Source of the DNA: Gnetum montanum
Lineage: Eukaryota; Plantae; Gnetophyta
Direction of reading: 5' to 3'
DNA length: 64,000 bases
NCBI GenBank assembly: GCA_015680685.1
Contig: MNCI01000286.1
Span: 373,213-437,212 of the forward strand
The position numbers and the translations under genes are program-made. The notes under the pieces were generated by a model, which did no database searches, was not told the origin of the DNA, and saw only the letters and a program-made list of their open reading frames with translations. Below are positions 2,833 through 49,909 of the stretch, piece after piece (position 1 is the first letter of the stretch; each line of letters begins with the position of its first letter).

Positions 2833-4500
2833 TATAGTGACAAAAAATGTTGGAGGCTGGAATGGTACACCAAGAGGTTCACAACATGTACAACTTGAAC
2901 CCACGTCTACATGAGGGCCTCTTGGAAATAGAGATGGGGTGCGCAAAATGGTCTTGTCGATCAAACTGGGGCTTACAATGTGTTACACCAAAATGAATGT
3001 TAAGGGTTCACACAATGTTTGCAATGTCCATTATGTCAATGAGGGTGAGCGTAGTCAGAGTTCTAGGTGCAAAACAAAAGTGCAAACACACAAATATGTG
3101 TAGAAAATAGCAAAGAATGCAAGTAAATGCTAGAATGCAAAAGAAAATGCTAAAAAATCCATAGGAAGTGAATGAGAAAGAAAGCGGCACCACCCCAAAT
3201 GGGGGAAGCATAGTTAACTACAGAGAAAGGTGAGGAGGTATGCAGTGTACAGATAGCCATAGTAGGTAGTGTAGTCATAGTCTCAGGGTGTTTGGGCTAT
3301 GAAGATTAATGTTCACCATGAAGTTTGGGCCTATGAGCTACAGTGGTCTACGGTATCCAAGGTGGGTGTGTGATGGTGCTGCGATGGTGTGCAATGGTGC
3401 CTACCAAAGTGCCAAGTGCACTCGAATGCTAGAGTGCTCCAAATGAAAATTTGTCTAGCTGACTGCTTCAAATGCCAACCCCTAAAATGTGAAACGCTAG
3501 GGTATTTATAGGGTTATGGTTGCCATGAATTGAGGATCAGGCGCCATGTTGAGACTATGCTATACCCAGCTATGCTCCCATTGAAGCAAATGGTGTTTTG
3601 TTGGTAATGGACCTTGTGAGACTACCAAACTGTGATTGCACTACCTAAACTATGTGTGCATGTGCCAAATAGACTACAATCTACCTAAAAATAATACAAA
3701 ATAGTGTAGTTTTGGAGACTACATTGTCCACTCTCTTAAGTGGTATCGAGTGTAGGTACAATTTTGGAGAAAATGGGGGATGTGTCAACAAATGCAAACT
3801 ACTGATCCTGCTCGTTGAAGGGGTGATGAAGCTGAGACAAAGGTTGGTGCTAAGTTATAGAGGCTTCTAAAGGTAATCTTGGTAGACTACATTGACTATG
3901 CTCTAGAGTGTAGCCCCAATAGTTAGACAAATTTTGCAAAACTAAGGTTCAGTGCTGACTACGCTAACTACACTCTAGAGCATAGTCCCAAAAGTGAGAG
4001 CGTAGTTCAAGCAATTAGAAATTTTTTTGCAAAAGTAGTGTCTCCAAGAAAACTACACTAACTATGCTCTAAAGCATAGTAGGGAGCATAGTCTAGTAGT
4101 TAGAAATTTTACCAAACTATTTCTTCCATCCCAAGCATGCTTGACAGCTTCTGGTAGAGATTTTGCTTAACTATTTTTTCCATGCCAAGCATTTTTTATG
4201 CCTCCTGGCTTAACACTTAGGCAACTTTTCAAAACTAGCAATTGGTGTGCTAACTATGCTCTGGAGTGTAGTCTCGGTAGTGAGAGCATAGTCCCCACAC
4301 TTAGAAACATTTGTAGCTACAGTTGACACTTAGAAAAATCTTGCAATTCTAAAATTCTTGTGCCAACTATGCTAACTATGCTCTGAAGCGTAGTCCCAGT
4401 AGTGGGGAATATAGTCTCAACACTTAGAAAAAATACCTTGTGTTGACACATAGAAAAATTTGTGGTCAAGACGTGGCTACCCAAATTTGGTGGTGTTTCA
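2833..4500 (-). repeat. T1 3' LTR
   Basis: Colinear with 20503-22229. 17 differences in the first 88 bp (15 transitions), indicating an old insertion. Minus-strand TATA box CTATAAATACCC at ~3500-3512. Confidence 0.95.
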
Positions 4501-6404: not shown

Positions 6405-9400
6405 CTAGGCATAGTAAGGCTTCAAGTACGAGTGGTTCACTAGATTGGAAAATTAATTTTCATTGTGGTTAGCAAGCTTGAATGCTTCATTTTCATATGC
6501 CTTGACAACTAAAGCCCTTCCCAGTTGGCTAAGAATTTATCTTTGGGCTCACAAATGACTTTGAGGACTAGGTCCCCTTTCTTGATCAAGCATTGGTGCA
6601 AATTTTGATGGTTCTTTTGCTATTGCATTTGTTGGTACCACTCAATATGGTTAAGCATCTACATGTGCTCCTCCTCTATCAAGTCAAGGTTCATGGTTCT
6701 CAACTTGTCATTTTAAGCTTCATCGATGAAGCTCAATAGGATCACCTGGAACGATGGGACCTACAATTCAAGAGGAAAAATTGCTTCAAACCCATAAACA
6801 AGGATATATGGCTTCTTACCTATTGTTGTGTAGTAGGCCTAGATTGCATAGACTAATTGCTTATGACATCGTTGTTTACTGTTCCTAAGCATATTCTTTA
6901 GAAGATTGATGATGACTTTGTTTGTGGCCTTCACTTGACCATTCGCCTGTGGGTAGTAGGGCGATGAAAAGGAACAGTTCATTTTCAAGCTCTCGCAAAA
7001 AGATTTGGTCTCAGCATTGCTAAATTTTGGCTTGTTTTCTATGACTATGGTCATGGGTAAACCAAAGTAGGTCACAATGTTATCAAGTACAAATTTGCAA
7101 ATCTATTGTGGTGTTATCTTCCTAAGGGAAATAGCTTCAACTTGATTGGTAAAATACTTAGTTGTAGTTATAATGAGGCTATGTCCCACAGAGAACTTAG
7201 GCATTATAGGTCCGATGATTTCCAACCCCCAACATTAGAATGACCAAGTGATCTATGTTGTGTGCAATTCAATTAGTGACACATGCATTAAGTTTCGATG
7301 CCATTGACATGTGTCGCAAGTCTTGACATTAGAGACACAATCACACTCCATGTAAGGCCAATAGTAGCCTAAGTATATGATCTTTACTGCCATTTCCCTG
7401 GGTGTTATGTGGCCTCTACATAGTCCTTCATGGACTTCTTCAATGATCATTTGCACTTTGTTGTCGCTCATTCATGTTAACAGTATGTCATCGTAGGATC
7501 TATGATGCAATGTGCTATCATCCATGATGATGTACTACCAAGATCACTTTTGCACTACATCTTTTTTGGCAATGGTTAGATGCTATGAAAGTTCACCCTA
7601 TAGAAGGTATTCCTTAATGTCATTGTACCATTCTACTATGTGGGTTGTGCTTACTATGGCTATGGATGCAATATCAATAGTTTGCATGATAGGCATAGTA
7701 CAATCCACCACTAAGGTGGACAATGTGTGAAACATGTCAGGTGCAATGCTTAAGGCTAACATTGCTAACACATCGACTATGGAGTTTTCGTTGTGGGGGA
7801 TATGCTAAACATTATTAGTTGCAAATTGTTTGAGCAAGCTCTTTGCCAAGTCACAGTAAGGTTGCAAGTGTTTTACTTTACAAGCGTAAACCTCAGTGAC
7901 TTGGTTTACCACTAACTGTGAGTCACCTTGGATCGTTAGGTTTTGTATTCCTAGGTCACAAGCTACCAAGATACCTTGGAGAAGACCTTCATACTCTACC
8001 ATGTTGTTAGTGCATGGAAATGCAAAATGATATGCAAAGGATCGGATCTTCCCAGAGAGAAATGTGCTTGTGGCAGAAACACTATCCCCTTGAGAGGTTG
8101 AAGCACCATCAAAGTATAAAAGTGCCATGAAGTTATTAGGCACTTGACTTATGCTAGTGACATGCTCATCTAGAAATTCTAGATCTATTTCTACTTGATC
8201 ATCAATTGGGAAAGTCATAAGTTGTGTGGCTATTACTTGACCTTTGGTTGATGCTTGTGCAATGTAATGTAAGTCAAACTCCATGGTTATTACTTTCCAA
8301 TGTGCAATGTGACTTCTCTCATAGATATTCATGGTAATGTCTCGAAGTACATTACTTTTGCAAATGATGTTAATATAGCTATGGAAAAGATAGTGCCTCC
8401 ACTTCTTAAGTGCAAAGACTAAGGCAAGGCAATTCTTTTCCACATCATTATACTTTGCTTCATAGGCAACCAATGCATGGATTAGGTAGTATATTGAGAC
8501 CTTTGTGACATTTTCTCGCTTTTGACAAAGCAAAGAAATGATGGATGTATCAGAGGTAGCACGGTAGATGTAAAATGGTTTATCTCCTTGTGGAGGGTAG
8601 ACCATTGAAGTTGTGCTAGCTCTTGCTTAAGGTTGTTGATTTCCTCTTGGAATTGAGTTGTCCACTCAAAGTGAACTCCTTTTTTGAGCAAGTGTTGCAT
8701 TAGCTACAAGTTATGGGTCAACCATGTGATAAACCTTTGTATAAATTGTAATCTTCCTTGAAACCCTTGTAGCTCCTCAAGCTTAGCTAGTGGTGCTAAG
8801 TTGATAATGGCCTTAACCTTACAGGGTCTACATGTATGCTTACCTCGAATACTATGAAACCTAGCATGTAGCTCGTCTTGATGTCAAAGACACATTTCTT
8901 AAGATTTAACCTAATTTCATGCTTCAGACAATGTTTGAGTATAAGGTCTAAGTCATCTGCATGTTTGTGTGCTACTTTGGACTTGACTACTATGTCATTA
9001 ATGTAATCATTAAGAAAACCTAACATGTAATCACTAAAAATGTACATCATGGCTTGTTGATAAGTCGCTCTTGAATTCTTAAGTCCAAAGGGCATCATAG
9101 TGTAACAAAATGTACCCCAAGGGATCATAAAGGTAGTAATGAGCTAGTTCTCTAGGTTGATCTAAATTTGGTTATAACCTGAGAACCCATCCATGAAGGA
9201 CAACAAGGCATGACTAGCCGTAGTATCGACCAATTAGTCAATACTAGATAACGGGAAGTCATCTTTAATGGTTGCATTTTTTAGGTCATGGAAGTCTATG
9301 CAAATGCATATACTTCCATTTTTCTAAGGTACAACCACGATGTTTGAGACACAATCTATGTAGTCAATGGTCTAGATGAAACTAGCTTTGTAGAGCTTAG

Positions 9401-9890
9401 TGATTTTATCATAGACTACCAATGCCACCTTAGGCCTAACCTTGCGAGCTTTTTGCTTAACTAGTTTTATGTTGGGATCCAGGATTATGTTGTGTTGTAC
9501 TATGCGAGGATCTGGACCTGGCATGTCTTCATAAGACCATGTGATCACCTTGATGTTTTTGTTGAGTACTTTTGCGATGTTTTAAGCATGCTGACGCTCT
9601 AACAAAGAACTAAGTTGCAATGTTTTTACCTCATCACTAGGTGTTGCTACAAGGATTTCAATGAGGGGATCCTCAATGATGTCACCTACCTCTAGATCTA
9701 GAACCCTAACTAGATGGTTTGGCCAGTCTAGCAGTGCCTCTATGGATGTTATGTATTCATCATAGGCTATGGGCTCAAGGATCAGGCATTGTAGATCAAT
9801 GTATCATGTGAGATCACCATGAGGCCCGGTGAGGACCAAAGGTAAGTGAAGATGGTTGTACATAGTATGTTAAAAATCCTACCAAAATCT
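6405..9890 (-). pseudogene. T1 pol: RT, RNase H, archaeal-type RNase H (aRH), integrase
   Basis: MPFGLKN.RATYQ..M, DYINDIVVKS (8796-9128); RH and aRH LYFDGAS...FPCTNNMVEYEGL...QGDSQLV (7805-8605); H..C..C zinc finger (7253-7471); SSPYYPQANGQ (6839-7075); stop at 6405. Confidence 0.95.
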
Positions 9891-10025
9891 TGCAAAAAAA
9901 ACTAGAAAAAATGTCAAGTTGCACTTGTCTTAGCAAGAAAAATATGCATATAAATGAAGAAAAGAAATGCAATAAAATTCCACCTAAGTATGCACATCTA
10001 ATGTTAAAAAGCAAGAAATGCATGG

Positions 10026-10112
10026 GCTAGTTTTAAGCCTTGGCAGGCCATGGATGCTAGTTTAAGGTCTTAGCAGACCATGAAGTGCTAGTTTAAGGTC
10101 TTAGTGGCCATG
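10026..10112. repeat. Three ~30 bp GCTAGTTTAAGG..C..GRCCATG units
   Basis: Same family as the 6060-6365 and 15716-15998 arrays. Confidence 0.85.
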
Positions 10113-12102
10113 GTATGCACTAGATGCATCATTTTGGGAAAGGCCAAGAGTGCTTGGAATGTGAAGCTGGACTAGGCATTCATTGGGTAGTGAGAAAAAT
10201 ATAAAATTTTTCTAAGTCTATGGTGGCCAAAAAAATCAAAAAAATTTCTAAGTTTGGTGACTATGGTTCCACCCAACTATGATCCCACCCAACTACACTC
10301 TACACTATGCAAATAGGGTTGGTAAAACATTAAGTGGTCCCAGGGGATATAAAATCATATTTCACCTTAGGTAAGTCTATCATTGTTAAAGTTAAAAATG
10401 TAAACTTTTCATAGTGTAGCCTAGTCTAAAGAGTGTAGTTGCTAGCATGTCACACCAAAGTAGATGCCAACACTCCAAGTTGGCCAACATGGATGAGGGA
10501 AAGTGAGCACTAAGACACTTTCCATGGGAATGCATGGAGGAGCAAAGGGCACCACCATCTGCCAAGTATCCTAACTACAATCTCCCCTTTTTTCCATTTT
10601 ACCTTTTTTCACTTTTCTTATTTCGAGGGTTTGGGGCCTAGTTTTGGTGGTACCATGCCATGAAGAGGGTCATCACCATCATGACCATTATGGCCATCGT
10701 AGCTAGGAAGAGAGGGTGCACATGCATGGAGAGAGGGTTTTTTCTTTGGTGCTTTGTCTATTTGAAATACTTTGCTTTTTGTTGCATGGTGGGCATAGGT
10801 AGAGCAAGGATGAAGGCTTCATAACAATGGCCAAGGATCACTAGTCACATGTGCAGGGTTCTCTAAGAAATTTCTTTTTTGTTGTTACGTGGGGTAGGAG
10901 ATTGGGGTTTGGTGGCTGCTTTAGGACTACTGCCTACAAGGCTAAGGCATAGCCAGTTTCTACGATTTTTCCTTTTGTTTTCAAAACCAACTACTATGCA
11001 CATAGCAGGGATAGGGGGGCACCAACGATGGCTAGGGTAACTCACCCCAAGACAAGAACATAGCAAGGTTTACCCTAAAATTTTTATTTTAATGCAAAAA
11101 ATGCAAGGGTTAGATGTCCAAGGGGCATAGGGGCCATGGAGTAACTACCCCATAGCATGGCAGTGAGGGCAAAGGCATCACATCTTATAATGCAGCTATG
11201 TAGTTGCAAGGGCCACGAAGGGGAGGCATGACACCAAGGACACATTTTGTGCATTTTCTAGTTTTTTGTTTATTATTTTTCTTGAAAAATTTTAAGTTAT
11301 TGCAATGGGGTAGGGTAAGCGATGTAGTGCATGGCAGCATCATCAATGTAGATGGCATGGCTGGCACTTGATGCATAGGGTGCGGTGAGAGCAGCCAATA
11401 GGGTAGTGTACAATGCCGTGGTGGGATGTTGGGTGATAGAGAGGAGAGTGTTGGGGTGGTGGCCAAACCTCAGTTCATTGGCCACAACTAGGACTAAACT
11501 CCCATCTTGGAGATGCAATTAACACCAGGTGTTTGTCAAATTTATCCTTACTCAACAGTTAGTTTTTTATGAACCATGCTCTCTGGGGAGCATAGTCAGC
11601 AATTAGAATTTGTTGATGTTTGAGACTATGCTCTATAGTTTTCTAGAGCATAGCTAGGGATTCTAGGGTTAGAAAAATTTACATGTTTTTTTGGACTACG
11701 CTCCCCAGAGAGGTAATCCAAAGTTAGAATTTTTTGCGACTGTTCCAAACTATGCTATCCAATGTTACAAAAATTTTGAAATTTTTTTTCAAAATGCTAA
11801 ACTTGTGAAATGTAAAATGTTGGTGCTAAATTTTCAAAACATGCAACCTGTAATGAAAACTGTGTAAATATGCGAAAAAAAATTATAATGCTATGCAAAA
11901 TGTGTTGTGCTCCAATGAGTACTAGGCAGGTCAAATGTATATGTTGATGTCCTACACCCATGGAACCCCAAGGGGTCCTAAAATATATTTGCTAAGCTAT
12001 GCCACATTATGCTGATTTTGCTAAGTTTAAGTTAATATTTTTTTCCAAAGTTTGCATCTAGTGTATACTAACATTACATTCGTTGCCCTTTTGTGGTTGT
12101 AG

Positions 12103-15100
12103 TGTGTTACTAAAACTAATCCTAGTCATTGTGGAGCTCATTGGCATTCTCTACTACATGAGTGAGCCTATGCCCAACACACCTATGCTAGATATGCAAG
12201 TCAGTTATCAAGAAATGTGGTTCTAGCTAGGGGCATCTGAGTTCCTAGTATTCCTACTATAGCACTTTAGTGTGATGGTGTGGACACACTTAGTGGCAAA
12301 GGATGCAAGTGTCATCATCGAGACATTGTTGCCCAGGGCCAATCGAGACATATTAAAATTTATGTCCAATGAGCCCACTATTGGTGATGATGGAGGAGGT
12401 GGTTTAGGAAGAGACCCCAAGAGCCCTCAACCCTTATCCAGGATTTGGCAGTTGCCAAAGTTCTCTTGCTACAACAAGAGAAACACCCTTTTTATTACTC
12501 TGTGCATGCACACTTTGTTATAGAACCCACCTAGAATGGTATACTACACCAAAGGGTAAATGCTCTTATGATTTTTGCATTGTATTCTTTTCCCTCGGCT
12601 CATGCTAAGTTTGCTAACTACTAATTACTCATGCTTAATACGAAATTCAAAGTTGATGATTAGGGTCTCTATGATTAGGATGAGGCTCTTGCCTTGACTC
12701 GTACTAGTTTGAATGTCTGGGAGGTTATCCTTGAGTAGTTAGGAGCTAATCTAAGAGATTATCCTACCTGATATCTAAGAGCATTTGAGCATTGTAAGAC
12801 CCATGATTAGCTTGATGGGTTAGTGCTTGTGCTACCACCTTCATCCAGCATACTATTTGTTCCATGTAAGTGTTTCGTGTTTTGGCTTTTATGCTTGCTC
12901 ACATCTACTTATTGATTTTCCTTTTTTCCTTACATGATGTTAATGTTGCATTTGCCAATGTTGTAGCTATAGTTGCTTCAGGAGAGGTAACAATGGCCAT
13001 GACAAGCCACACTGAGTTCACCCTCATCATGAAATATGGTGATGTGGAGGGGACGTAGCATTGGTTGTGCCACTAGGCCTCAAAGGTATTGACCAATCAG
13101 CTCACATGTATTGGGTTGATGGACCTTTTCTTAGCCCTTAGCCTAGGAATTCTAATGGATAAAATGATCACCATCATAGACTCCCTTAGCAACAATATCT
13201 ACCACTTCATCATCCACATGCGTGATGTGAGGGTAATTCTAGACCTCAATGAGAGCTTCTTCACTAACCTCTTTGGCCTTCCCATTGACAAGGATAATAG
13301 AGAGGTGGACCACAAAGGAGAGATCAAGGGTTGTTTGGGGGCCACTCAATCTCACAAAGGCATCCCAATTAAATATGTGCATGTGCATGAGGTCTAGGAG
13401 CTCTACCCTCTATTTCACACCTATGCCTTCCCAAAGTTACTCTCACAAGAAAAGATCCTTGGGGTGGAGCATGCATGGATGATGAAGGAGGTGTTGTAGG
13501 AGCACACAAGGTTCAATTGGACATATTACATTGCCACTGGCCTACACACAGAGATCACTATGTTACTCTTCAACCTCCAGGTGAGGTCCCACATACACTT
13601 CGCGTTCTTTGCAGCGTATCTATGAAGGTTCACAAAGCTCTTGATGGTTTGAGATAGTAGGTGATGGATCATGTAAGACTATGAGTAGCTATCAAAGCCT
13701 TGGGTTAAGCACATGTTCATAACCACTCACTCACAAGACCCCCCCAAAAAGGATCAATGAGTCATACTTAGTGATGACCAAAGGTCTCTTAGGGTGGTCA
13801 CATTATTCATGTGACAATGAGGGTGAGTGTTCACTAATTGTTATTGGGGATGTGAACAAGGCCAACTACTATATTGCAAAAATAGTTGGATTATTCGAGG
13901 TGAAAATCAAGAGGCCACGCCCAATAGAGGATGCTACTCCTAAGGTTGGGTGGGCAAGCATCAAGAAGATCCACCTTAAGATCCCCAGCTTGCACACAAA
14001 TGTTTTAGGTTAGTATATATGGCTTACTAGATTTAGTATTTTGTATTTTTTTTGTATTTATTTTTTTATGTTTTTTGCTATGTTATGCTAATGCTAAAAT
14101 GTTATGTTTGTAAATTTTCTAGCCTCTTTGATGATGTGCTGCTAGGAGACCTCCCTACTCTCACACCTAAGGGCTTGCTAGGTAAGTACCTTAGATTTCT
14201 ATCTATTTTTTCTCTTTTTCTCTTTCATATTTGGCTATTTAGTTGTTTCTTATTACATTATTGTATTGTAGCCCTAGATGAGCCTACTAGTTGTCCATCA
14301 TCCACATCTACCTAGCACATGAAGCCATGGGTAGAAACACCTAACAAGCTTTCCTTCATGGAAGGCATTATTGATGACATGGTTGGTCACCTATAGTAGG
14401 AAAATCTTGAGCTTGGTATGCATATGATGTTTTTTTTGCTTATGTTGCTTTACCAATTTAATATTTAGTCCATGGCTAAGGTTGATTTGCTTATTGTATG
14501 CCAACAGGTTCTAAGCTTCGTTGGGATCTAAGTAGGATGGCTAATGTAGATGTCATCCTTGAGTTCCCTCTTGAAGTAGAGTAGGTGCCTCATCATGTGT
14601 ACAAGGTATTCAACAAGTGCATGCTTTCTTGCATGAAAGCATTATGGTTCTACAAGCACTCAAACGAGCATCTATGGAAGTGTGTGCATGAACTTTAGGA
14701 GAGAGTGATGAGCCAAGAGATGAAGATCAAGGATCTTTAGTCCCAATATTACTTCTTGTTGATTCAATCATGGGGGAATAGTACTTGGCATACCATAGAG
14801 ATTGATTATGCCAAGTACTGGTTGGCCATCTAGGGCAAGAATGAGGATGCTTGAGAGATCATTGAGTAGTGGTTATAGATGGATCTACTTGCCCAAAAGA
14901 ACCAAGACTAGAAGAATTTCAGTGTCAAGGTATGCAAGTGGGGGAAAACAAAATAAAACCAAAAACACCACTATAAGTTTGAGAGAGATGCACATCTTCA
15001 ACCGCTCAAGGAAGAATTTTTCAAACATCATTGCCTTGAGATGTTCCTTGAGGCAACCAATGGGAGATAGGCCTATGAGTTTTTTGCTCATCATATCATG

Positions 15101-15491
15101 ATGAGTGGCTCTCCAAATAGGTAGATTGTTATTCCTATAGAAGAGGCTTCATCTATTACATTTTCCATGGAGCTACCTGCATGGACCACGGTGGACAAAG
15201 GCAAGACCCTTGCGGGGGTTGACTTTGGGCAAGAGGACTGGATGCGACTATCTAAAGTCAAGATTCTCAAACACTTGTAGGAGGGCCTTGATAGTTTTCC
15301 TTTAGATGTGATCAATGTAGGATCCTCTCAGGTTAGTTTTTTATGTTATTTTTATGCTTTTTATGTTAGTTTGTATATTGTACATTTGCTTACAGGTTTA
15401 CTATTTTTTTGTTGTTGTGGCAAGTACTAGGCAATGTTGCAAGCCCCAGAAGCACAATAGAGGAAGGAGGAGCTTTACCCCCACATAGGAC
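12103..15491 (+). pseudogene. T1 antisense multi-exon cargo gene: FCP1/NIF-like pseudophosphatase, PMD-like domain, helical C-terminus
   Basis: Exons 12103-12555, ~12645-12865, 12967-14008, remnant ~14115-14181, 14272-14415, 14508-15331, 15424-~15491. Donors GTAAAT, GTAAGT, GTTAGT, GTAAGT, GTATGC, GTTAGT. Phases are consistent and the gene is colinear with the T2 copy. Confidence 0.8.
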
Positions 15492-15715
15492 CACTGGTTT
15501 AGCATTTTCTGATGTAGCCCTACTATGGGCATTTTTGCACTCTTTGTGCATTTTTTTTGTATGATGCAGATGATCATGTTATGTACTATCATTTCTATGA
15601 GATGTGATGGATATTTTTCCATATGGAGTGTATACTGTGTAAGGCTTTTGCATTTATTTGTTATGTGCTTTGATGCTATGCAATGAATTTGATGTGACTA
15701 GGCCACTGTGAGCTA

Positions 15716-15998
15716 ATGCTAGTTTAAGAAAATTTTAGGCCACATGATTGCTAGTTTTAAGCCATTTTAGGTTGCATGTGTAGATAACTTGTGTTGATAT
15801 TTTTAGGCCATTATAGGCCCCTATTATAGTTTAAGACCATTTCAAGCCATTCATTGAAAGGAAAAGTGTTACCATTTTTAGGCCATGGTGGGCCATGCAA
15901 TGCCAATTTAGGGCCATGGTAGGCCATGCACTAGTTTAAGACATTTTCAGCCATGCGATGTAAGGGAGATTGCTAGTTTTAGGCTGTAGTAGGCCATG
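15716..15998. repeat. Array of GCYAGTTTAAGGCCAT..GGCCATG units downstream of the gag-PR stop
   Basis: Degenerate tandem units; homologous to 45212-45535 in T2. Confidence 0.75.
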
Positions 15999-16264
15999 TA
16001 TTTTTTTTTTTGTAATTTTCAAATTTTATGAATTTTTTATGTATTTTAATGCTTTTCATGCATAAGCTAATAACTGCTAAAAAGTAAACTTAACAAGCGA
16101 AAACATAGACTAAGCAAAAATGGACAAATAAAAGAAGTAAATGCATAACTATGCAAAAAATGCAAACAACCAAACATGAATGCACAAACAAGATGTAAGC
16201 AAGCTAAGTATGCAAAGGTTTGGGGCAGGAAGACACCTAGCACATGTTGACCTAAGGGGATGCC

Positions 16265-19200
16265 TTAGTCACGTAGTTTCTTCCTAACCTGATGTGGGTT
16301 AGAAGGCATGTAGGGCCTGGATGGTACTATGGAGTACTTGCCTTGACCTTTTTTAGCTATGTCAAAGGGTAATTCTACCCACAACACATCCTCTAGGAGG
16401 TCAGTGGCTCCCTTTGTTTCCTTAGGTTGGTCTACCTCACATGTTTCACCTTCTTCCTTTACAAGAGGCACATCATTGGGGAACTCTACCTCTAACCCTT
16501 GCTCTATGTTAATGTTGCTAAAGATCATAGGGGATACATTGTCATCATAGATGATAACCTCACCACCTTCATATGAAAGGTGGATTTCTTAGTGGATTAG
16601 AGAGGAGATAGCTTGTAGCTGGGCCAACCAAGGCCTACCCAAGATTAGGTTGAATATAGGAATCTCCTTGGTCACAATAAATTCTATTATGATGGGGAAT
16701 TTTTCCCCTACCATGCAGGCTATAGGGATGGTTCCCCTTACAACAATGCATGACCCATTGAAAGGTTTCAAGCATGTTGTCTTTGTGGGTTTGATTTGGT
16801 TGGCAAGACCTAACTTATCAATGACTATGTACAGGATGATGTTAGTTTCTACCACATCATCAACATGCACCCTATAGATTCTGGACTTTTCTACATGGAT
16901 TATTATGAACACTGGTGTAGTGATGACCTAGCCCTTCTCATGGTCAACCTTGATCACCTCATTGCAGAATGCTAGGGGCATTGAACTCAATTCCTGTGGT
17001 GTAGGGGGTAACATCACAACATGGATGGATTATTCATTCGCTAGGATGTCCTCTGTAATAGGAATGAAGGTCAACATGCAAACTAGCACTTTTTGGTAGG
17101 TGGAGAAGTCATGATCAAGTCATATAGGCTTAACATTTTACTTTTCTATTTTAGAGCTTGTTTAACCTATGCCACTACATCAAGGAATTCCTTGCCGATG
17201 TTTGCTATTTTGTTGTTGGCCTACATATCTTCCATGCAACCCAAGAGATGAATCTCTTGTGAAGGAGATTTGGGCATCACTTACCTTGCTTGTCTTGGAG
17301 CCTCAATGCTTCATTGTTGGTTACTTATGATGGACTTCCTAGTTGATTGGGCCATGGGAATAGAGGACAAGGGGACAGGCTTTGGTGGGCCTAGTGCCCT
17401 TTACTCTAGTTGCTGCCTAAGCATTTGATTGACAAGGTGCTTGTTGAGCCTCCTAGGTTGCCATCTCAATTTCCTGCTAGTGTCACTTACAAGATAGGGT
17501 CTCAGGTGAGTAGGGACTGATGCATTTCCCACCATTAGACTCCTAGTAGGTGGGGATTCTACACATTGTGACATCCTTATAACAAAGGGTGATTGGGTGG
17601 TTGCTACTACAACATGTTGTGGGACCCTGACCACAAAGGGTGTTATGGGTGCTCATGGTGGTGCTCTAACAATGAAAGGGGTCCTTAATCTAGTTGAAGT
17701 TGGGGGGCTTCAACATCACTAGAGGGAACACGAACCACAAATGGCTCCTATGCTAACTCTGAGTTTTTGTTAATGTTGATGCCATTGATGGTGTACCCTA
17801 CACCACTTGTGTTGAGAGGGTCCTTGTAAACCCTCATTGATTAGTTTTGGAGGCAAAATAGGTTGGTTGCATCAAGGACCAACTCGCCTCTATCAATCAT
17901 GCATTGTATGTCATCTCGTAAAGCCATGTAAAAGTTTGTATTGTGGATTGGCAATTGGTGATAATGGCAAAACCAGTCCAACCTAAAATGCTTAGGGACA
18001 AAGGCTCATTTCGTAGTGTAGCTAAGGGATTATTAAGAAGCTTGTAATATTGGTCATGATTTTTGCAAGCATCCTTAGAAATTTACTTATACTGGATGCA
18101 CCCAATGTAAAGCAATTGATCCAAGAGCTTCGACAGCTTAATGGGAAATGGTATGTACTTTAAGTGATCCTTGCACTCAAAGTCTAGCCTTGAGATAGTT
18201 GGTGCCACAACTATTGACAATGCAAGTTGGTTGTTTACTATAGTGCCAAAACCAAAAGCCTTGTTGTTATTAACTAGGGCCTTGGGTGGCCTAGCCATTG
18301 CCTTAGTATTGCTTGGCTTAGCCTTGTTGGCTATCACTACTATAATTGTGGTTGCCTATTTATCCTTTTTCTTTTCTTTTTCTTTCTTTGCATGTAGCTT
18401 TTTATAGGCCATGTAGGCTAAGTCCTTGCTAGCCTCCACTACATCCTAAATGCTCTTGATTTGAGAAAATTCTTGGCTCAAGGATTGCAGGGCAAGGTAA
18501 TACATCTTTGACTTAATGAAGTTATTCACTACACCCTTAAAAATAGCCAGCAGGTGTGCTTCCACAATGGGCTCATGGATTTCATTGAGTGATGAGATCC
18601 AGTGTTGAATGAATTTTTGCACGAGCTCTATGTGGCCCTACTTAACTTGCATCAACTGATCTAGGATGGCCTTGGGCTTCAAGTTATACTTGAAGCACAT
18701 GACAAATTGGCAAAGAAATTCCTCCAAAGAAGAGATGGAGGCCTTGGGGAGCACAAAGTACTAATCTAGGACCTTACCAATCAAGAACATGGTGAACACA
18801 TAGATCATCACATGTGGCCACACCTTCAACAAGAGGCATTCATATTGGAAGATCACCAAGTGTACATTGGGGACCCCTTCACTATTGTATTTGGTGAACT
18901 AGGATAGTGGGACCCTGATAAGTAGCATGAGTGGTGGAACTACAAGACTAACTAGATCATCCTGATAGAAGTCTATCACATGGACCATTTTAGAGGAGGT
19001 GGCCTTAAGCTACTTAACCTCTTTAGTGAGGCTTTGGATTAGCTAGAATGCTTGATCCAAGCATGATAAGGTTGCAATGGGCTATGTGGATTGTGCTACC
19101 CACCATGCTTGTTATGTGGCCCACAACCTAGCTACAGGATGTGCAACCATGCATGATGTTTGTTGTGTGGGTTGTATCACGAGCACAGTGGCTAGGCCCC

Positions 19201-20479: not shown

Positions 20480-20496
20480 CCCTCCTTCTAGTGCCA
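20480..20496 (-). other. T1 primer binding site, tRNA-Asn
   Basis: TGGCACTAGAAGGAGGG, one mismatch to the complement of the plant tRNA-Asn(GUU) 3' end CCCUCCUUCUAGCGCCA (recalled sequence). Confidence 0.8.
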
Positions 20497-20502
20497 GAAA
20501 AC

Positions 20503-22229
20503 TATAGTGACCAAAAACGTCAAAGGTTGGAATGATACACCGAGAGGTTCACAACACATACAACTTAACCCCGCATCCATGTGAGGGCCTGATGAAAATG
20601 GAGATGGGGTGCCTAGAATGGTCTTGTCAATCAAACTAGGACTTACAAGCTGTTACACCAAAATGAATGCTAAAGGTTTGCACCATGTTTGCAACATCCA
20701 CGATGTCAATGACTGTGAGCATAATTAGAGTTTTAGGTGTAAAATGAAAGTAAAAATGCATGAATATGTGTAGGAAATAGTGAAGAATGCAAGTAAATTC
20801 TATAATATGAGAGAAAATGCTAAGAAATGTGCAAGAAGTGAGCAAGAGAGAAAGTAGCACCACCCAAAATGAGGAACGCGTAGTTAACTATAGAGAAAGG
20901 TAAGGAGGTACACGATGTATAGATAGGCACAGTGGGTAATGTAGTCACATTCTTAAGGTGTTTGGGCTACAAAGACTGGCATCTACTGTGAAGTCTAGGG
21001 CTACCAAGTTGGCTACCATGGTGTCCTACGAGTTTTGATGATATACGGTGTGCAAGGTGGGTGTGTGATAGTGTTGCGGTGCTATGAAACAATGTCTACT
21101 AAAGTACCAAGTGCACTCAAATGCTAGAATACTCCAAATGCAAATTTCTCTAGCCTAATGCTTCAAATGCCAACCCCTAAAATGTGAAACACTAGGGTAT
21201 TTATAGGATTATGATTGCCATGAATTGTGGATTAGGCATCACATGGGAGAAGGGTAGTTGGGACTATGCTACACCCAACCACGGTCCCGCTGAAGTAAAT
21301 GGTATTCTGTTGGTGTGCTCCAATGGACCTTCTGAGACTACTAGACTATGCCTACACTATCCAAACTATGTGTGCATGTGCTAAACAAACTGCAATGTAC
21401 CTAGAAATAATGCAAAATAGTGTAGTTTTGGAGACTATGCTCCAGGACTATGTTGTCCACTCTCTCAAGTGGTGTTAAGCATAGGTATGATTTGGGGGCA
21501 AATGGGGGATGCGACAAGAAATGCAAACTACTGATCTTACTTGCCAAAGGGGTGTTGAAGCTAAGATGAAGATCAGTGTTGAGTTCTAGAGGCTTCTGGA
21601 GGCAATCTTGGTAGACTACGCTAACTACACTCTAGAGCGTAGCCCCAACAGTTAGACAAATTTTGCAAAACTAAGGTTCAGTACTAACTACACTTTGGAG
21701 CATAGTCCAAAAAGTGAGAGCATAATTTAAGTAGTTAGAAAACATTTTGCAAAACTAGTGTCTCCATGCAGACTACGCTGGCTGCACTCTAGCATGTAGT
21801 AGGAAGAGTAGTCTAGTAATTAGAAATTTTGCCAAACTGTTTCTTCCATTCCAAGCATGCCTGACAACTTCTAGTAGAAGTTTTGCTGAATTTTTTTTCA
21901 TGTCAAGCATGCTTGATGCCTCCTAGTTTGACACTTAGGAAACTTTGCAAAACTGGCTATTGGTGTGTTGATTATGCTAACTACATTGTTGAGGGTAGTC
22001 TCGGTAGTGAGAGTGTAGTCCCCACTCTTAGAAACATTTGTAGCTACTATTGACACTTAGAAAAATCTTGCAATTCTAAACTTCTTGTGCCAACTATGCT
22101 GACTATGCTTTTGAGTGTAGTCCTAGTGGTGGGGAGTGTAGTCTCAACACTTAGAAAAAATTTCCCTTGTGTTGATACTTAGACAAATTTGTAGTTACAA
22201 CATGATGGCCCAAATTTGGTGGTGTTTCA
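20503..22229 (-). repeat. T1 5' LTR
   Basis: Partner of 2833-4500; begins TGAAACACC on the element strand; adjacent to PBS and TSD. Confidence 0.95.
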
Positions 22230-31189: not shown

Positions 31190-32967
31190 TTGATGATTAA
31201 AAAAATTGGTGGCTAGAACACCAAGGGGTTCACAGGTGCATAGCCTTGAGCCTACCTCCATGCGAGGGCCTTGTTGGAAAATGGAGGTGGAGTGCCTTGG
31301 ATGGTCTTTTTGATTGAATAGGGACTTTGCTAAGCACAACCGGGGTATTGGATGCAACCAAAGATGGCATGATTAGTTGAAATGTAAGTGTTGATGTTGT
31401 GAAATAATGCTAAGCATTCTAATGGTGTTTTCGATAGTACTAGGGCTAACTAAGCCTAAGTGTAGCTAGGTTTCCTAACATGAGAATGAAGGTCCAAACA
31501 TGCAAAAAACATGTAAAGTAGTGAGGAGATATGAATGCAATGCTAAAATGTCAAAGAAAATGCATCAGAAATGCTTGAAAATGCTAAGGAGTTTAAGAGA
31601 GAGAGAATGGCACTACCCCAATTAGGGAGCATAGCAATTATAAAAGAGAGGTAAGAAGGTACATGGTCCATAGACAGGCATAGTAGCAACATAGCCACAA
31701 TCTCTAGGATGTCTCGAGGTGAAGACTGATGTCCGCTGTGAAGTCTGTGCCTACTAGGTTGGTTGCCGCAGTGTCCTACGAGTTGTGGTGTGCTACGATG
31801 CTAAATGGGCTACAAAGGTATTGCCAAGATGCTGATACACTCTAGTGTGGAGGGTGCTCAAGGTGCCTCAAGTGCTAAGTGGTACTCAAGCGTAATGCCA
31901 AAGATTATCAAATTGCCAAGCAGGTGCAAAATTGTCAACTGAAAATGTCAACTATTTCTTGAATTTTCCAACGAGGTGCCTCAAAATTCCAACCCCTAAA
32001 ATGTGAAATGTAGGGATATTTATAGGATTAGGGTTGATGTAAAGTGTGGATTAGGCCCCGCATGGTAAAGGGAATAGGTGTGGCTACACTGACCTCTACT
32101 ATGCTCCTCCTCGAGTAATAGGTGCTATGCTTTGGTATGCTCCACTAGATCCCAAGAGACTACCAAACTATGGCTATGCTACCAAGACTACAAGTGCCAA
32201 GACTATAATGTACCTACAAATAGTGCAAAATAGTGCAATTTGAAAGCTACACTCTAGGACTATGCTCTTCCCTCTTTCGAATAGAGCCAAGCATAGGTAC
32301 AATTTGGGATAAATGGGGGGTGTAAAAGAAATGCAAATTGTTGATCTTACTTGCTAGAGGAGTGCTAGAGCTAGAATGAATGCCTATGCTAATCTCTAGA
32401 AGCTTTTGGAGATAGTTTCATGTTGTTATGCTAGCTATGCTCTAGAGTATAGCCCAATAGTTAGGCAAATTTTTTAAAAGACTAAAGTCTAACATTGTTA
32501 TGCTTGCTACACTCATGGTGTAATAGGAGGGGATAGGGCATAACATGGACACTTAGAAAAATTTTGTGAAAATTAAAATCCTTGTTCTTGCTATGCTCTA
32601 GAGCTTAGCAAGATGGGTAGCCTCAGGAGTTGGAAAATCTATCAAACTGTTTCTTCCATTTTAAGCTAGCTTGACAACTTCTGGCTTGACACTCATGCAA
32701 ACTAGCCATTAGAGTGCTACTACACTCAAGAGTGTAGTATGAGGGATGGGAGAGTATCAAGGCACTTAGAAAAATTTTTGTGACCATTGTTAACACTTAG
32801 AAAATTTTGCAAACTTGGTTCTATGCTGCATGGTATGCTAGCTACACTCTAGAGCATAGCCCCAGTAGTGGGATCATGGGCCAAACACTTAGAAGAAATT
32901 TACCTCATGCTGACACTTAGGGAAATTTACAGTCAAGGTTCTATGGCCCAAAATTGGTGGTGTTTCA
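31190..32967 (-). repeat. T2 3' LTR
   Basis: Colinear with 49910-51685 and related to the T1 LTRs. Confidence 0.93.
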
Positions 32968-34589
32968 TTGGTCCCTCTTTGTTGATGATTAGAGGAGTGG
33001 CCTGAGAGATGTCAAAAAAGAACCCGAAACACCATGGCAAGCATGGCACCAACATCACTCATCAACACCCAATTAAATGATGCTTCATTGGGCTCAAGAG
33101 TGCTAAAGGAAATGGTATTATAAGGGTAATAAATGTAGAGAATTGGCTTGGGGATAGCAAGGGAGAAACGAGATGCAAATAATGTATTATGCTACAAGAC
33201 ATGGGGTCAGCACGGCTAACCATGATCATGACACCAGGGTGGCTTGTTGCCAAAACAATGACCTCTTGTCAAAGTGCTTGTGAAAGAGCCATTTCCCATA
33301 GCACTAGAATGGATTACTCTTGACATGTTGACCTCTCTTTGAAGTGCTTATGAGAAGGCTAATGCAAATTTAGGGTTGGACTAGTTGCGAAATTGCAAAT
33401 TTACTACTTTTTTTTAGTTTTATGCTCTTTTATTTTGATTTTTGTTTTTTTTCTTTGCAAAATGCTAGCTGCAAGATTCTTATCATCAAGTAGACTACAT
33501 GCCACTTGACAAGATTTGCTTAGAGGTAACCATGTCATGTCTATAGAATAGGTTTTTCCTCCCAGGGATGAGTTGCATTACATCTACTTAGGCTTTGAAA
33601 AACCTACAACGGCTCCCCATGGGATGAGTTGCATTGCATCCATCATGGGTTCTGCGGTCGACTAAAAGAAGAGTGCCATGTGCATCAAAGAAGTTGGTAG
33701 GGTAGGTAAGAAAATGTAAGGTAAAAGGGGTAAATGCAAGTAGGCTATAGTAGGGTAATAGGGATGTGCACTCTTGAGTGACTTGGCAATTCCAACCAAG
33801 CACATCAAAGCAATGTGGTGACTTACCACTGTGATGAAATGTGTCCTTAAACAATCACCTCTAAGGCTTCATCCTACAAACATAAAGCAGAAAAAAAAAG
33901 GAACAACCACACAACATGAGATAAGAGCAAACTACTGGTTGTGAAGGTGTTGCAAGTGCCACGAGTGCTAGGCCAATTACAAGAGCTTGCAGTGCCAAAG
34001 TAGGAAGGCCAATGTGGGTGATGGAGCTAGAAAGTTGTAAAAGCTCTAGTAGCAACACTGGAAGTGAGCACCCAAGGAAGGCTGATGAAGTGACTAGGGG
34101 TGATGTCAATGTCGGTGCTTGAGACTCCACACAAAGGATAGGAACTTGAAAATCTAGCAAAATCGTAGGGAGCCAAGCTACTAGATGCACTTTCAAGCCC
34201 AAGCATTGGTGAGGGCTAGAGGATGGTAGTGCTGCAGCTGGGCCAAAATATTACTGGGACTTCAATGTGTTGTGCTGATGGTGAGAGCGTCAACCAACAA
34301 TGAAATACCCAAGGTTGGTGATGCTATTGGCATGGCCTAGGGGTGGTAGGACTAGCAATGGTCGTAGTAGCTCTAGAAGGTTAGCAAAATGCCCGAGGGC
34401 ATATCTAGAGGATTAACAAAATGCAAATGTTCCAAAGGTATCTTTCTTGATGATGTGAACTCCATTCTGGAACTACAACACCCCACCCCACCCTACCCAA
34501 GAGGCATGGGTAGATGACAAAGGATCGAAACTATTCATGCTCACTTGTCTATAGAACTGTGCATGTTGAACTATGTGTGCTAAACTACA

Positions 34590-35000
34590 AACCCAATTTC
34601 AGGTCCTATTAGACCACATGCTATGCTAGTTTAAGGTCCTAGTAAACCATGAACCTAATTTAAAGTCCTAGAAAACCATGATGTACTAGTTTATAGTCCT
34701 AGTAGACTGCTATGTGCTAGTTTAACATAGTAGCAGATAATGGATGTTGTGCTAGTTTAATGTCATGATGAAAAGATGAGCTATTCCAGTTTATAGTCAT
34801 AGTAGACTTGCTATGCTAGTTTAACATCATAGTGGACGAGTCTATTGTTGATGACAATTTAATTTCATAGCCCAAGGATGTTCTATGCTATTTTATAGTC
34901 ATAGTAGACTATCTATGCCAATTTAACATCATAGCGAATGCTTTGTGCCAATTTAACATCATAGTGGATGTTGTGTGCTAGTCTAATATCATAGCAGACA
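34590..35000. repeat. T2 3' UTR tandem array, ~29-31 bp units
   Basis: GCTAGTTTAA..TC.TAGTAGAC units after the integrase stop. Confidence 0.82.
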
Positions 35001-35039
35001 CTCACTTACCTTACTTTATTGTTGATGTAGCATTGCATA

Positions 35040-38000
35040 CTAGGTGTAGTACAGCTTCAGGTATGAATGGTTGATTGGCTTAGAAAACTCATTGCTATCT
35101 AGGTCAACAAGCTTGAATGCTCCATTGTCATAAGCCCTGGTGACCAAGAAAAGCCCTTCCTAGTTTCCTAAGAATTTATCTGTAGGTTCAAAAATGGCCT
35201 TGAGGACTAAGTCCCCTCTCCTAATTAGGCATTGATGCTAATTATGGTGATGCTCTTGCTATTAATTTTCTTGATACCATTCGATGCAATCAAATGTTTG
35301 CATGCACTCCTCCTCTATAGAGTCAAGATCAATGATTCTCATAGCATTGTTCTAAGCCTCATCAATGAAGCTTGAGAGAATTACATGGAGCAATGGAACC
35401 TACAATTCAAGAGAAAAAAATCACTTTAGACCCATATACAAGGCTATATGGCATCTTATCTATTACTATTCTACATGTTGTGCGATAGGCCCATAGTGCA
35501 TAGACCAGCTACTCGTGCCATCATCATTTGCTGCTACTAAGCATCATCTTCAGAAGTTTGACAATGACCTTGCTTGTGGCCTCCACTTGACCATTCACCT
35601 AAAAGTAGTATGGGGATGAGAAGGAATGCTTGATGTTGAGGTTTTCACAAAAGGCTTTGGTCTCTACACTGCTAAACTATGGTCCGTTGTCTATGAAAAT
35701 GGTCATGGGTAGGCCAAATCGGGTCACTATATTGTCAAGGATGAATTTTCAAACCTATTGCAATGTTATCTTCCTAAGGGGAATAGCTTCAACCCATTTG
35801 GTAAAGTATTCTATTGTGATTATGATGAAGCTATGTCCTATAGAGGACTTAGCTATGATGGGCCCTATGATATCCAACCCCCAACACGTGATCTATGTGG
35901 TGTGCACTTCAGTGGGTGGCACATGCATTAAGTTGTCATGCCATTGACACACGTTGCATGTCTTGACCTTGGAAATGCAACCACACTCTATTTAAGGCCA
36001 ATAGTAGCCTAAGCATCTGATTTTCAATGCCATTTCCCTAGGTGCTATGTGGCCTCTACACAATTCCTCATGGACTTGATCAATGATAGTTTGCACTTCA
36101 TTGTCACTAATGTAGGTCAGTAGTATACCATCATAGGATCTATGACAAAGTGTGCTATCACCTACAATGACGTACTACCACAACCATTTTTGCACTACAT
36201 CCATTTGGGTAGTGATTAGATGTTGTAGAGGCTCACCCTATTGAAGGTATGCCTTAATGTCATCATACCATTCTTGTGCGTGAGTTGTGCTTGTTGTGGC
36301 TATAGATGCAATGTCAATTACTTGCATGATGGGCTCAATGCAATCTGTTATTAAAGTGGGTAAGGCATGAAACATGTTAGGTGCAATTCTTAAGGCTAAT
36401 GTGGCTAATGCATCAACAATGGCATTCTCATTATGGGGGATGTGCTAGATATCTACAGTTATAAGCCATCAAAGTAAGTGCTTTGTCAAGTCACAATAAG
36501 GTTGTAAATGTTGTGCTTTACAAGTTTAATCCTCTATAACTTGGTTGATGACTAACTTCAAATTACCTTGGATTGCTATGTTTTAGATTTCTAGGTCACA
36601 AGCTACTATAAGGCCTCTAAGGAGACCCTCATACTCCACTACATTTTTAGTATAAGGAAATGCAAAGTCATAACTAAAGGATCAGATCTCCCTAGAAGGA
36701 AGCATGATGACAGTAGCGGCACTACCCCCTTGAGAGGTTGAAGCACCATCGACATGTAAAATTGCCTCAAACCTGGCAAGCACTTGGCTTATATTGCTAA
36801 CATGCACATCAAGGAATTTTGGATCTATCATTGCTTGATCATTTAATGGTGAAGCTATTAGTTCTATGGCTATTGCTTAACCTTTGGTTGATGCTTGCGC
36901 TATGTAATGCAAGTCAAACTCCACGGTTATTACTTCTCACTATGTAATTTGACTAATTTCATAGATGTTCATTGTGATTACACGAAGTACATTTCTTTTT
37001 CAAATGATGTTTACTTGGCTTTGGTAAAGATAATGCCTCCACTTCTTAAGTGCAAAGACTAGGACGAGGTAATTCTTTTCCACATCATTGTGTTTTTCTT
37101 CATGGGCCACTAATGCATGGATTAGGTAGTATACAGGGACCTCTAAGCCATCATCTTGCTTTTGGCAAGGTAGAGAAGTGATGGACATATTACAAGTTGC
37201 AAGGTAGATGTAAAAAGATTTATCTCCTTGCAGAGGGTAGATTGTTGGAAGCTAAGCCAACTCCTGTTTGAGGTTGTCAAATGCCTCTTGGCATTGAGCT
37301 ATCCATTCAAAGTGAACTCCCTTTTTGAGAAAATGTTACATTGGTTGTAGCTTATCAATCAATCATGCGATAAACCGACATATGAATTACAATCTACCTT
37401 GTAACCCACATAGCTCCTTAAGGTTAGTTGGTGATGCTAAGTTAATGATGGCCTTAACCTTATCAAGGTATAGGCATATACCTACTTCTAATACCACAAA
37501 GTCTAGCATGCAACCCATCTTAATGCTAGAGAAAAAATTCTTAGGATTTAGTCTAAGGTCATGTCTAAGGCAACGTTTGAGTGCATGGTCTAAGTCATCT
37601 ACATGATCATGTGCCATCTTGGACTTAACTACTATGTCATCAATGTAGTCATTGAGCAAGTCTAATAAGTAGTCGCTAAATATGTACATCATGGAGCATT
37701 GGTAGGTTGATCCTACATTCTTTAGTTTGAAAGGCATCATTGTATAGAAAAATGTACCCCAAGAGGTCATGAAGGTCATACTAAGTAGGTGCTCCAAGTT
37801 GATCTAAATCTAGTTGTACCTAGAGAACCCATCCATGAAGGACAACAAGGCATGACCAGCCATAGTACCAACTAGTTGGTCAATGTTAGGCAATGGAAAA
37901 TCATCTTTGATGGTCACCTTGTTTAGGTCCTAGAAGTCTATGTAGATGCGTATGCTTCTATTTTTCTTAGGTACAACCTTGATGTTGGAAACCTAGTTTG

Positions 38001-38532
38001 CATAGTCAACTACCCAGATGAAACCAGCCTTGTAGAGCTTGGTGACTTCATTATGGACTACTAATGCCACCTCAAGCCTAATCTTATGGGCCCTCTATTT
38101 AACTGGTTTTATGCAAGGATTAAGGATCATGTTTTACTACACTATGCAAGGAACTAGGCTTGGCATGTCCTCGTAGGACCATGCAAACACCTTAATGTTA
38201 TCCTTGAGAACTTTCATGATGCTTTGGGTGTGCTTAGGCTCTAACAATAAACTAAGTTTCGGTGTCTTCGCCTCGTCAATGAGTGTTTCTATAGGTACTT
38301 TCACGAGGGAATCCTTAGTGACATCACCTACCTCCAAATTGAGAGCCCTAACTAGATGGTCAAGCCAATTTAGTGATGCTTCTACTAATGTTCCATAGTC
38401 ATCACGAACCGTGGGCTCAAGGTCTAGGCATTAGGCATCAATGCATCAAATGAGATCACCATGAGGACCAGTGAGGACCATAGGTAAATGAAGACACTTA
38501 TATGTGCTCATGTTGTAATCCTATGACATATC
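35040..38532 (-). pseudogene. T2 pol: RT, RH, aRH, integrase
   Basis: VFAWSYEDMPS, DYIDDIVVKS (37387-37797), YYLIHAL..E.NY..LVFALKKWRHY, aRH HVDGAS; integrase colinear with T1. Confidence 0.95.
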
Positions 38533-45057: not shown

Positions 45058-45211
45058 GAAAACCTAATGAAGCCCTACTGTTAGGAAATTTTGCACTTTG
45101 GCCATTTTTGTCACATGGTCATGCTATGTACTCCTACTAATGGAAATATAATAAAACTTATACCTTTTGCAATGAGGATTTCCATTTCAAGCCATAAATA
45201 AAATGAAAAGT

Positions 45212-45535
45212 GTTGCTAATTTTGGGCCATGGCAAGCCACAAGGTGCCAATTTAAGGCCATGGTGGGCCATGTGCTAGTTTAAGGCCATTTTGGTCCATG
45301 GTGATGCAAGAAAGATTGCCAATTTAAGGCCATGATAGGTTGTGTGCTAGTTTAGGGCCTTTTTGGACAATGGCAATGCAAGAAAGGTTCCCAGTGTAAG
45401 GCCATGACAGGCTATGTGCTAATTTAGGGCTTTTTTAAGCCATGGTGATGCAAGAAATATTTCCAATTTAAGGCCATGGCAAGCCATGGAGTGGGAGAAA
45501 AATGTTGCTATTTTTAGGCCATAGCAGGCTATGGC
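45212..45535. repeat. Array of GCCAATTTAAGGCCATG units with ~72 bp higher-order dimer
   Basis: Alternating 28 and 44 bp units read directly. Confidence 0.85.
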
Positions 45536-45777
45536 GATATACATCTTCTTTTTGTGATTTTAAATTTTATGATTTTTGTGTATCTTAATGTTTTTGTTTT
45601 AATGCATAAGAAAGCTAAATGAAAATGCATAAGCAAAAAGGAAAAATCCAGAACAAAGTAAATGGTGCAAAACATAGGCAACCATGCAAAATGCAAGTAC
45701 ATAAGTAGAAGGCAAGTGGGACATGCGAAGACCAAGGGTAGGCAAGCACCTAGCACCTATTGAACTAAGGGGATGCC

Positions 45778-49886: not shown

Positions 49887-49903
49887 CCCTCCTTCTAGTG
49901 CCA
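49887..49903 (-). other. T2 primer binding site, tRNA-Asn
   Basis: Identical to the T1 PBS. Confidence 0.8.
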
Positions 49904-49909
49904 GAAAAC

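Follow-up and report, generated by a model that had tools for sequence, protein, structure and literature searches.

Retrotransposons of the Ogre clade, within the Tat group of Ty3/gypsy elements, keep Gag and protease (PR) apart from reverse transcriptase (RT), RNase H (RH), an archaeal-type second RNase H (aRH), and integrase (INT) by means of a spacer or intron, and are further marked by 5-bp target-site duplications, very large size, tandem arrays, and an extra gene (PMC6317226, PMC4408406). The Ogre PR/RT intron is spliced (PMC4408406), 89% of Ogre elements use a tRNA-Arg primer (PMC6317226), and their extra open reading frames (ORFs), most of which encode PMD, are situated either 5' of gag or 3' of pol. 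In Retand, Grande, and TatIII, antisense ORFs (TRP28, PMD, gene23) between pol and the 3' long terminal repeat (LTR) represent a conserved accessory gene, found in most copies and proposed to be regulatory (PMC7264820, PMC11963269); the Grande gene possesses a promoter of its own, and its product is nuclear (PMC7264820). Among the extra ORFs catalogued in surveys are PMD, TRP28, ATHILA ORF-1, SMC-like, lysine-decarboxylase-like, AlkB, G-patch, and other types, all lying 5' of gag or 3' of pol in the texts consulted (PMC6317226, PMC7264820, PMC11963269, PMC9289625), and the origin and function of such ORFs in plant Ty3/gypsy elements are mostly unknown (PMC7264820). Here, we describe a 64,000-nucleotide stretch of the Gnetum montanum genome (contig MNCI01000286.1, positions 373,213 to 437,212; hereafter, the window), in which two related LTR elements, A and B, appear to carry a spliced antisense passenger gene between PR and RT, one exon of which (E1) almost certainly descends from NIF-family proteins with a HAD fold.

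Self-comparison of the window revealed A and B as minus-strand elements of 19-20 kb, and E1 sits in the PR/RT spacer of both, bearing out the proposal of a first-pass annotation, made from the sequence alone, that the domain is carried by a transposable element. As in Ogre, Gag-protease is set apart from RT-RH-aRH-INT, and A and B share with that clade the 5-bp target-site duplication, the very large size, the tandem arrays, and the presence of an extra gene. They differ from the described systems in that (i) the extra gene is antisense and housed in the PR/RT spacer, rather than 5' of gag, 3' of pol, or between pol and the 3' LTR; (ii) it is predicted to contain about six introns and a NIF-derived exon, unlike the extra genes of Ogre, and no phosphatase domain was found for Retand, Grande, or TatIII in the texts searched; and (iii) whereas Ogre-related elements of orchids, likewise of the Tat clade, have fixed a captured AlkB domain as an active enzyme in an additional ORF (PMC9289625), the enzyme domain here is predicted to be dead and to belong to a spliced antisense gene. 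We favor, with a probability of roughly 0.55, the reading that E1 is the dead NIF/HAD domain of an antisense passenger gene in an Ogre-like Tat family and that it likely served as a non-enzymatic interaction module.

E1 is 453 nt long in each copy, without an indel between them, and lies on the plus strand at 12103..12555 (A) and 41090..41542 (B). These are the positions that had been assigned to it, and they coincide with exact AG..GT exon limits in both copies: TTGTAG precedes 12103 and 41090, and GTAAAT and GTAAGT follow 12555 and 41542, respectively. The reading frame begins one base inside the exon (12104 in A, 41091 in B), and the translations, which are 53% identical (70% at the DNA level), contain the FCP1-homology motifs described for them. 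They also contain seven in-frame stops (three in A and four in B), every one TAG. A TAG common to both copies stands before N-P-P; the idea that it marks an inner splice acceptor was discarded, as no donor lies at intron distance.

The NIF ancestry of E1 emerged from the two copies together. Taken singly, they matched neither Pfam NIF (0/2) nor the NCBIfam models (0/2). A two-copy profile searched against 1,835,955,588 proteins returned 11 matches at E<=0.001 (best E 2.7e-7), 10 of which passed the PF03031 cut-off, the remaining one being a low-complexity repeat protein; named cluster members among the relatives are FCP1-domain/HAD proteins of Sphagnum and Helianthus. The matches of this two-copy profile, checked against PF03031, are the independent evidence for the NIF assignment, so that the ancestry originally claimed holds through a transitive link even though the single copies fail the PF03031 check. 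Other scores reuse matches that E1 itself picked and are not independent: a back-search gave 58-60 bits over profile positions 3-150 of 194, and hhalign gave a probability of 99.4. The same holds for the alignment-guided model of E1 (pLDDT 73), for which the alignment was made of NIF matches. SCP1 ranked top among its fold matches (Foldseek E 1.7e-4; VIA Z 10.8, rmsd 3.0, 123 aligned), and the model also resembles UBLCP1 and CTDNEP1, the latter and other HADs lying within ~1 Z unit of SCP1. No match was obtained with the two-copy profile against PDB or in a word-indexed search of longer proteins, and in metagenome scans 0/136 and 0/128 pattern matches were confirmed. The C-terminal 44 positions of the NIF profile were not found in the next exon, E2, and the idea that E2 continues the NIF domain was rejected accordingly.

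E1 has lost most of the residues on which catalysis depends. More specifically, the motif I Asp position is Glu in both copies (codon GAG); the motif III Lys, present in 12/12 relative domains, is replaced by Gln (A) and Ser (B); and motif IV D-D, the first Asp of which is present in 12/12 relative domains, reads T-L (A) and A-M (B). The motif II Ser/Thr is retained (Thr in A, Ser in B). In HAD chemistry, losing the motif III Lys and the motif IV Asp removes Mg2+ binding and stabilization of the phospho-intermediate. At the second Asp of DxDx(T/V), the 11 relative domains covering the motif have N in nine cases, G in one, and S in one; this Asp is absent already in the nearest cellular relatives, so its absence was inherited rather than acquired in the element. 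The statement that catalytic aspartates were lost is thus correct for the motif I Asp and for motif IV and needs amending for the second motif I Asp, and the accompanying remark that these changes are not simple deamination products is borne out, as GAG, T-L, and A-M are not single C>T or G>A steps from Asp codons. When DNA contigs were aligned to 12085-12575 at 80% likeness, 2,098 (run X1) and 2,172 (run X5) aligned, most of them <95% alike to copy A, indicating that the family has many copies. None of the 36 differences at >=45% depth (the full list for 12085-12575) restores a catalytic residue of motif I, III, or IV, in an alignment that favors copy A letters and leaves split variants, each <45%, unlisted; copy B, 30% away in DNA, independently shows the same catalytic losses. 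We predict with good confidence that E1 is catalytically dead across the family.

E1 is one exon of a predicted antisense gene of about seven exons within the spacer, a setting that the first-pass annotation did not mention. The spacer spans 9879..16288 in A and about 38521-45801 in B (~6.4 kb and ~7.3 kb) as a predicted intron of the minus-strand pol transcript, and its A-B alignment resolves into gap-poor, AG/GT-bounded blocks, E1 to E7, between short gap-rich introns, amounting to ~1000 plus-strand codons in an orientation opposite to that of gag-pol. Following E1, the predicted plus-strand exons are E2 (A 12610..12865; B 41592-41899, with no family found), E3 (A 12967..14008; B 42344-43403; ~345 codons), E4 (a remnant at 14111..14181 in A, where the 5' part is deleted; 43489-43716, 228 nt, in B), E5 (A 14291..14415; B about 43830-43954), E6 (A 14508..15331; B 44041-44861; ~270 codons, no family found), and a short last exon, E7 (15431..15560), the 3' end of which is uncertain. 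Internal gaps number 0-1.5 per kb in E1, the 5' part of E3, E5, and E6, as against 23-73 per kb in six introns, and the splice-site pairs are mostly conserved between A and B, some acceptors having decayed in one copy. In element B, E2 is doubled by a 351-bp tandem duplication (41564-42259); its halves are 97% identical, compared with LTRs that are 18% apart, so it is much younger than the insertion.

Selection acted on this gene at the codon level. Between A and B, dN/dS is 0.35 for E1 (95% confidence interval [CI] 0.20-0.55), 0.24 for E3 (over its first 239 codons), 0.38 for E5 (CI 0.16-0.96), and 0.25 for E6. Comparators from the same elements are gag (0.24), protease (0.28), and integrase (0.28), within an overall range of 0.24-0.42 for gag, protease, RNase H, and integrase, and the LTRs as a neutral control gave 0.49-0.92 over 6 frames. 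Similarly, transversions pooled over E1, E3, and E6 are depleted at 0-fold relative to 4-fold sites in the plus-strand frame (ratio 0.41, p=0.0002), with E3, E5, and E6 each supporting constraint (p 0.002-0.008). The antisense gene, with dN/dS of 0.24-0.38, is under purifying selection like that on gag and integrase.

Several observations weigh against our reading and are gathered here. E1 alone fails the transversion test (0-fold 0.065, 4-fold 0.071, p=0.75; 42 four-fold sites), its dN/dS interval overlaps the lowest LTR control, and one antisense frame of E1 gives a dN/dS of 0.40 (codon mirror). E2 and the 3' part of E3 hold gaps, some of which are not multiples of three. The first exon and start codon of the antisense gene were not resolved, and neither E3 nor E6 has a confirmed family (Pfam 0/2 for E3). 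On the DNA side, to the bias of the contig alignment is added that no young intact copy was seen. On the RNA side, no read from four runs aligned to 10000-17000 crossed any predicted intron, and none was 99% alike to copy A. Because the candidate pol splice acceptors (9879-9889) fall outside that interval, the protease-RT junction could not appear in the alignment.

The same runs contributed 48 (X13), 4,535 (X10, mostly poly-T matches), 1 (X14), and 7 (X15) aligned reads. In X10, depth over 14446-14913 is 17-22 for reads whose first mate lies on the minus strand and 0 for the plus strand, from about ten starts. Nearly all aligned reads of this run are <95% alike to copy A. Depending on the library type and its strand rule, the X10 signal may reflect plus-strand transcription of E5-E6 from other copies.

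The null transversion test of E1 counts in favor of an alternative that we regard as possible but doubtful, namely, that E1 is a relic, either a captured host exon or part of a nested DNA-transposon gene, which persisted as an in-frame folded spacer before E3-E6 and had no binding role. Such a history would accord with the very long branch leading to E1 (2.8 changes per column), with the loss of all catalytic residues but that of motif II, with the failure to find the C-terminal 44 NIF profile positions, and with the intron-rich structure itself, which is unusual cargo for a retroelement and suggests an origin at the DNA level. However, dN is as low in E1 (0.28, with a dS of 0.79) as in E3 (0.26) and E6 (0.28), E1 has kept both splice sites and acquired no indels in copies 30% apart, and no terminal inverted repeats bound the spacer in A or B (none among 20 and 17 short pairs in the two copies).

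The first-pass annotation had labeled the domain FCP1/SCP CTD-phosphatase-like and had proposed a pseudophosphatase that binds the phosphorylated C-terminal domain (CTD) of RNA polymerase II (Pol II) or acts as a decoy for host CTD phosphatases. We consider this improbable. It is true that E1 belongs to the same Pfam family as SCP and FCP1, that its model retains the small beta insertion following motif I and has SCP1 as its top match, and that the motif II Ser/Thr is retained; that model is not independent of NIF homologues, though, and CTDNEP1 and other HADs lie close behind SCP1. Against the label, the relatives of E1 read D-[LVI]-N-G at motif I rather than DxDx(T/V); all nine that were tested fell far under the FCP1 (TIGR02250), SCP/Dullard (TIGR02251), and HAD-IIID cut-offs, TIGR02250 giving one weak match; and their profile found UBLCP1 (E 3.7e-12) ahead of SCP1 (~1e-4) among solved structures, with FCP1 absent from the 12 matches. 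Since the relatives form an uncharacterized D-x-N-G subgroup nearer UBLCP1 than SCP or FCP1, the domain is best described as NIF-family but not as a CTD phosphatase. As for binding, the CTD-proline pocket of SCP1 comprises Phe106, Val118, Leu155, Tyr158, and Arg178 (PMC7281111), and three of these five could be mapped onto E1 in the register set by motifs I and II: Phe106 corresponds to E/K, Tyr158 to D/A, and Leu155 to V/A. The pocket residues Phe106 and Tyr158 are not kept, the phosphate- and metal-coordinating residues are gone, and binding of the phosphorylated CTD is not supported.

The D-x-N-G proteins (P0007-P0017) share motifs with E1 over the full length of the Rossmann core (profile positions 3-150 of 194) but for the most part retain the residues that E1 lacks, namely, the Asp of motif I, the Lys of motif III, and the Asp-Asp of motif IV. 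UBLCP1 (HAD-IIID), SCP1/CTDSP, FCP1, CTDNEP1, and Tim50 have the NIF fold, which is predicted for E1 as well; compared with them, E1 is without DxDx(T/V), does not keep the SCP1 pocket, and shows no ubiquitin-like or BRCT domain. Tim50 provides a precedent for a non-catalytic NIF domain used in binding. In a 14-row tree, the donor lineage of E1 was not placed (2/11 inner branches starred), and the Atlas neighbors of the best match comprise one cluster made up mostly of giant-virus proteins and two others, of Bacteroidota and of streptophytes. Degenerate motifs also occur in P0012 and in the second domain of P0014 (N-L-S-G at motif I; D-I-G-G with D-T at motif IV), which suggests that the D-x-N-G subgroup repeatedly yields pseudo-enzymes. 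P0015 (a cluster of 3, on contigs of 2.8-4.8 kb) is a divergent NIF protein with D-N at motif IV, a long charged tail, and a long branch near the plant proteins, and may represent a further mobile NIF gene.

An unusual phosphatase or ligand-binding activity with Glu in place of the Asp nucleophile would fit the acidic residue retained at motif I in both copies with no majority variant, as well as the intact motif II, but is highly improbable given the additional loss of the motif III Lys and of the two Asp residues of motif IV. Equally hard to credit is the suggestion that what mattered was antisense transcription through the spacer, by splicing interference or control through small interfering RNA, with the protein secondary: antisense RNA control has been discussed for plant LTR elements (PMC7264820), yet codon-level constraint over ~660 codons of E1, E3, E5, and E6 points to a protein product.

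Under the reading that we favor, in which E1 is the dead domain of a passenger gene, Pol would be translated from RNA that has lost the 6.4-7.3 kb spacer by splicing, as in Ogre, while unspliced full-length RNA would be the form that is copied, so that the passenger gene would travel with every element copy. In line with such splicing, a sense donor (AG/GT at 16288 in A) and two candidate acceptors (9879-9889) are kept in both copies, in phase with the protease and RT frames. A promoter close to where the spacer meets RT would drive transcription of the passenger on the other strand; since the packaged RNA carries the passenger introns in reverse orientation, they would persist through reverse transcription. 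Its spliced product, of ~1000 residues, would engage a partner through the dead HAD fold (the Pol II CTD being an improbable one) and together with a downstream ATHILA-ORF1-like region might act in the nucleus in favor of element expression. That region is a lead only: E3 gave ATHILA ORF-1 at Atlas rank 10 (score 0.88; 14% of members with PF03078), a weak match; word-indexed protein searches with E3 and an E3 profile against PDB found nothing, and a fold predicted from the two-row alignment failed (pLDDT 29.8).

A wider and more speculative proposal, which we hold to be unlikely in its full form, is that the protease-RT intron is a cargo bay for a spliced antisense pseudo-enzyme gene combining a dead HAD fold, possibly of giant-virus or host source, with an ATHILA-ORF1/PMD-like domain, and that the product is a selfish mimic of PMD-PP7L-type modules, shielding the element from silencing or setting the balance of spliced and unspliced RNA. 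MAIN/MAIL1-PP7L and MAIL3, in which a transposon-related domain and a phosphatase fold control transposable element expression (PMC7156037), offer an analogy only, as they are host genes whose phosphatase fold is PPP, not HAD, and E3 is at most a candidate PMD.

Element A occupies 2833-22229 on the minus strand, with the target-site duplication AATTC at both sides. Its 3' LTR (2833..4500) is preceded by a purine tract, and 6 nt beyond its 5' LTR (20503..22229) comes a TGG-starting primer-binding site common with B. This primer-binding site may match tRNA-Asn. Element B (31190..51685, minus strand) has the same layout, with LTRs at about 31190-32967 and 49911-51685 and the target-site duplication AGGTT. 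Decayed gag and protease of A (16500..18997, minus strand) were recognized by eye, with no Pfam match. Its decayed pol (6600..9878, minus strand) comprises RT, RNase H, an archaeal-type second RNase H, and integrase; Pfam models found were PF17917, PF13456/PF00075, PF17921, and PF00665 in A and PF00078 in B. The features present are those of the Tat clade (LTRs, primer-binding site, polypurine tract, target-site duplication, RT-RH-INT order, extra RNase H) and of the Ogre lineage (aRH between RH and INT, gag-PR set apart from RT by a spacer, 5-bp target-site duplication), and by these sequence characters we class the elements as Tat-clade Ty3/gypsy and file them as Ogre-like only.

Divergence between the LTRs of a pair, by the Kimura two-parameter distance (K2P), is 0.213 in A and 0.212 in B, meaning that both insertions are old, and both copies are broken. 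The DNA of the window is of plant type and strongly depleted in CG and CHG (CG observed/expected 0.10-0.22). CHG decay is lopsided in the LTR pairs, the C of CAG changing about twice as often as that of CTG (35 CAG-strand versus 16 CTG-strand changes, with just 5 CAG/CTG triplets unchanged in both LTRs); this would explain an excess of TAG and CTA, and the all-TAG stops of E1 fit the pattern. Related 28-31 bp tandem units occupy both ends of the PR/RT spacer and the 3' region in A (10026-10104, 15720-15990, 6205-6301) and in B (34626-34995, 38677-38751, 45244-45478). A 386-bp tandem duplication adjoining A (22238-22957 and 2786-2828) contains an uninterrupted A target site, 22574-22616 matching the left flank.

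Outside the two elements, LINE-like remains lie on the plus strand at 57685-60863, with an RT ORF at 59943-60467 (PF00078, E 2e-14); the ORF upstream of it contains a Cys/His motif and gave no Pfam match. A stop-free frame of 140 codons on the minus strand (61452-61874), without a Pfam match, is possibly a host-gene exon. Dispersed repeat pairs were found at 27535-28410/55090-55978 (83%) and 25771-25981/52193-52400 (67%).

A NIF-derived antisense cargo and its position in the PR/RT spacer are unreported in the surveys that we checked. The terms NIF, FCP1, and HAD are absent from the REXdb supplements other than Additional files 1 and 3 (PMC6317226), NIF and FCP1 are absent from the main text of the orchid paper, its full domain chart excepted (PMC9289625), and the literature covered, which did not extend to subscription papers such as Steinbauerova 2011, yielded neither a retrotransposon with a NIF/FCP1 domain nor a gene located in a PR/RT intron. 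The screen for extra ORFs described in PMC6317226 was directed at ORFs of at least 250 codons in 5' or 3' positions only; given its exon-intron structure, the antisense passenger gene would be missed by screens based on ORF length. The dead state of A and B limits direct follow-up. The family nonetheless offers an accessory gene with a traceable cellular ancestor, together with a predicted change from enzyme to pseudo-enzyme. If the arrangement is general, giant plant genomes may hide many spliced passenger genes, and pseudo-enzymes would join the tools that transposons may turn on their hosts.

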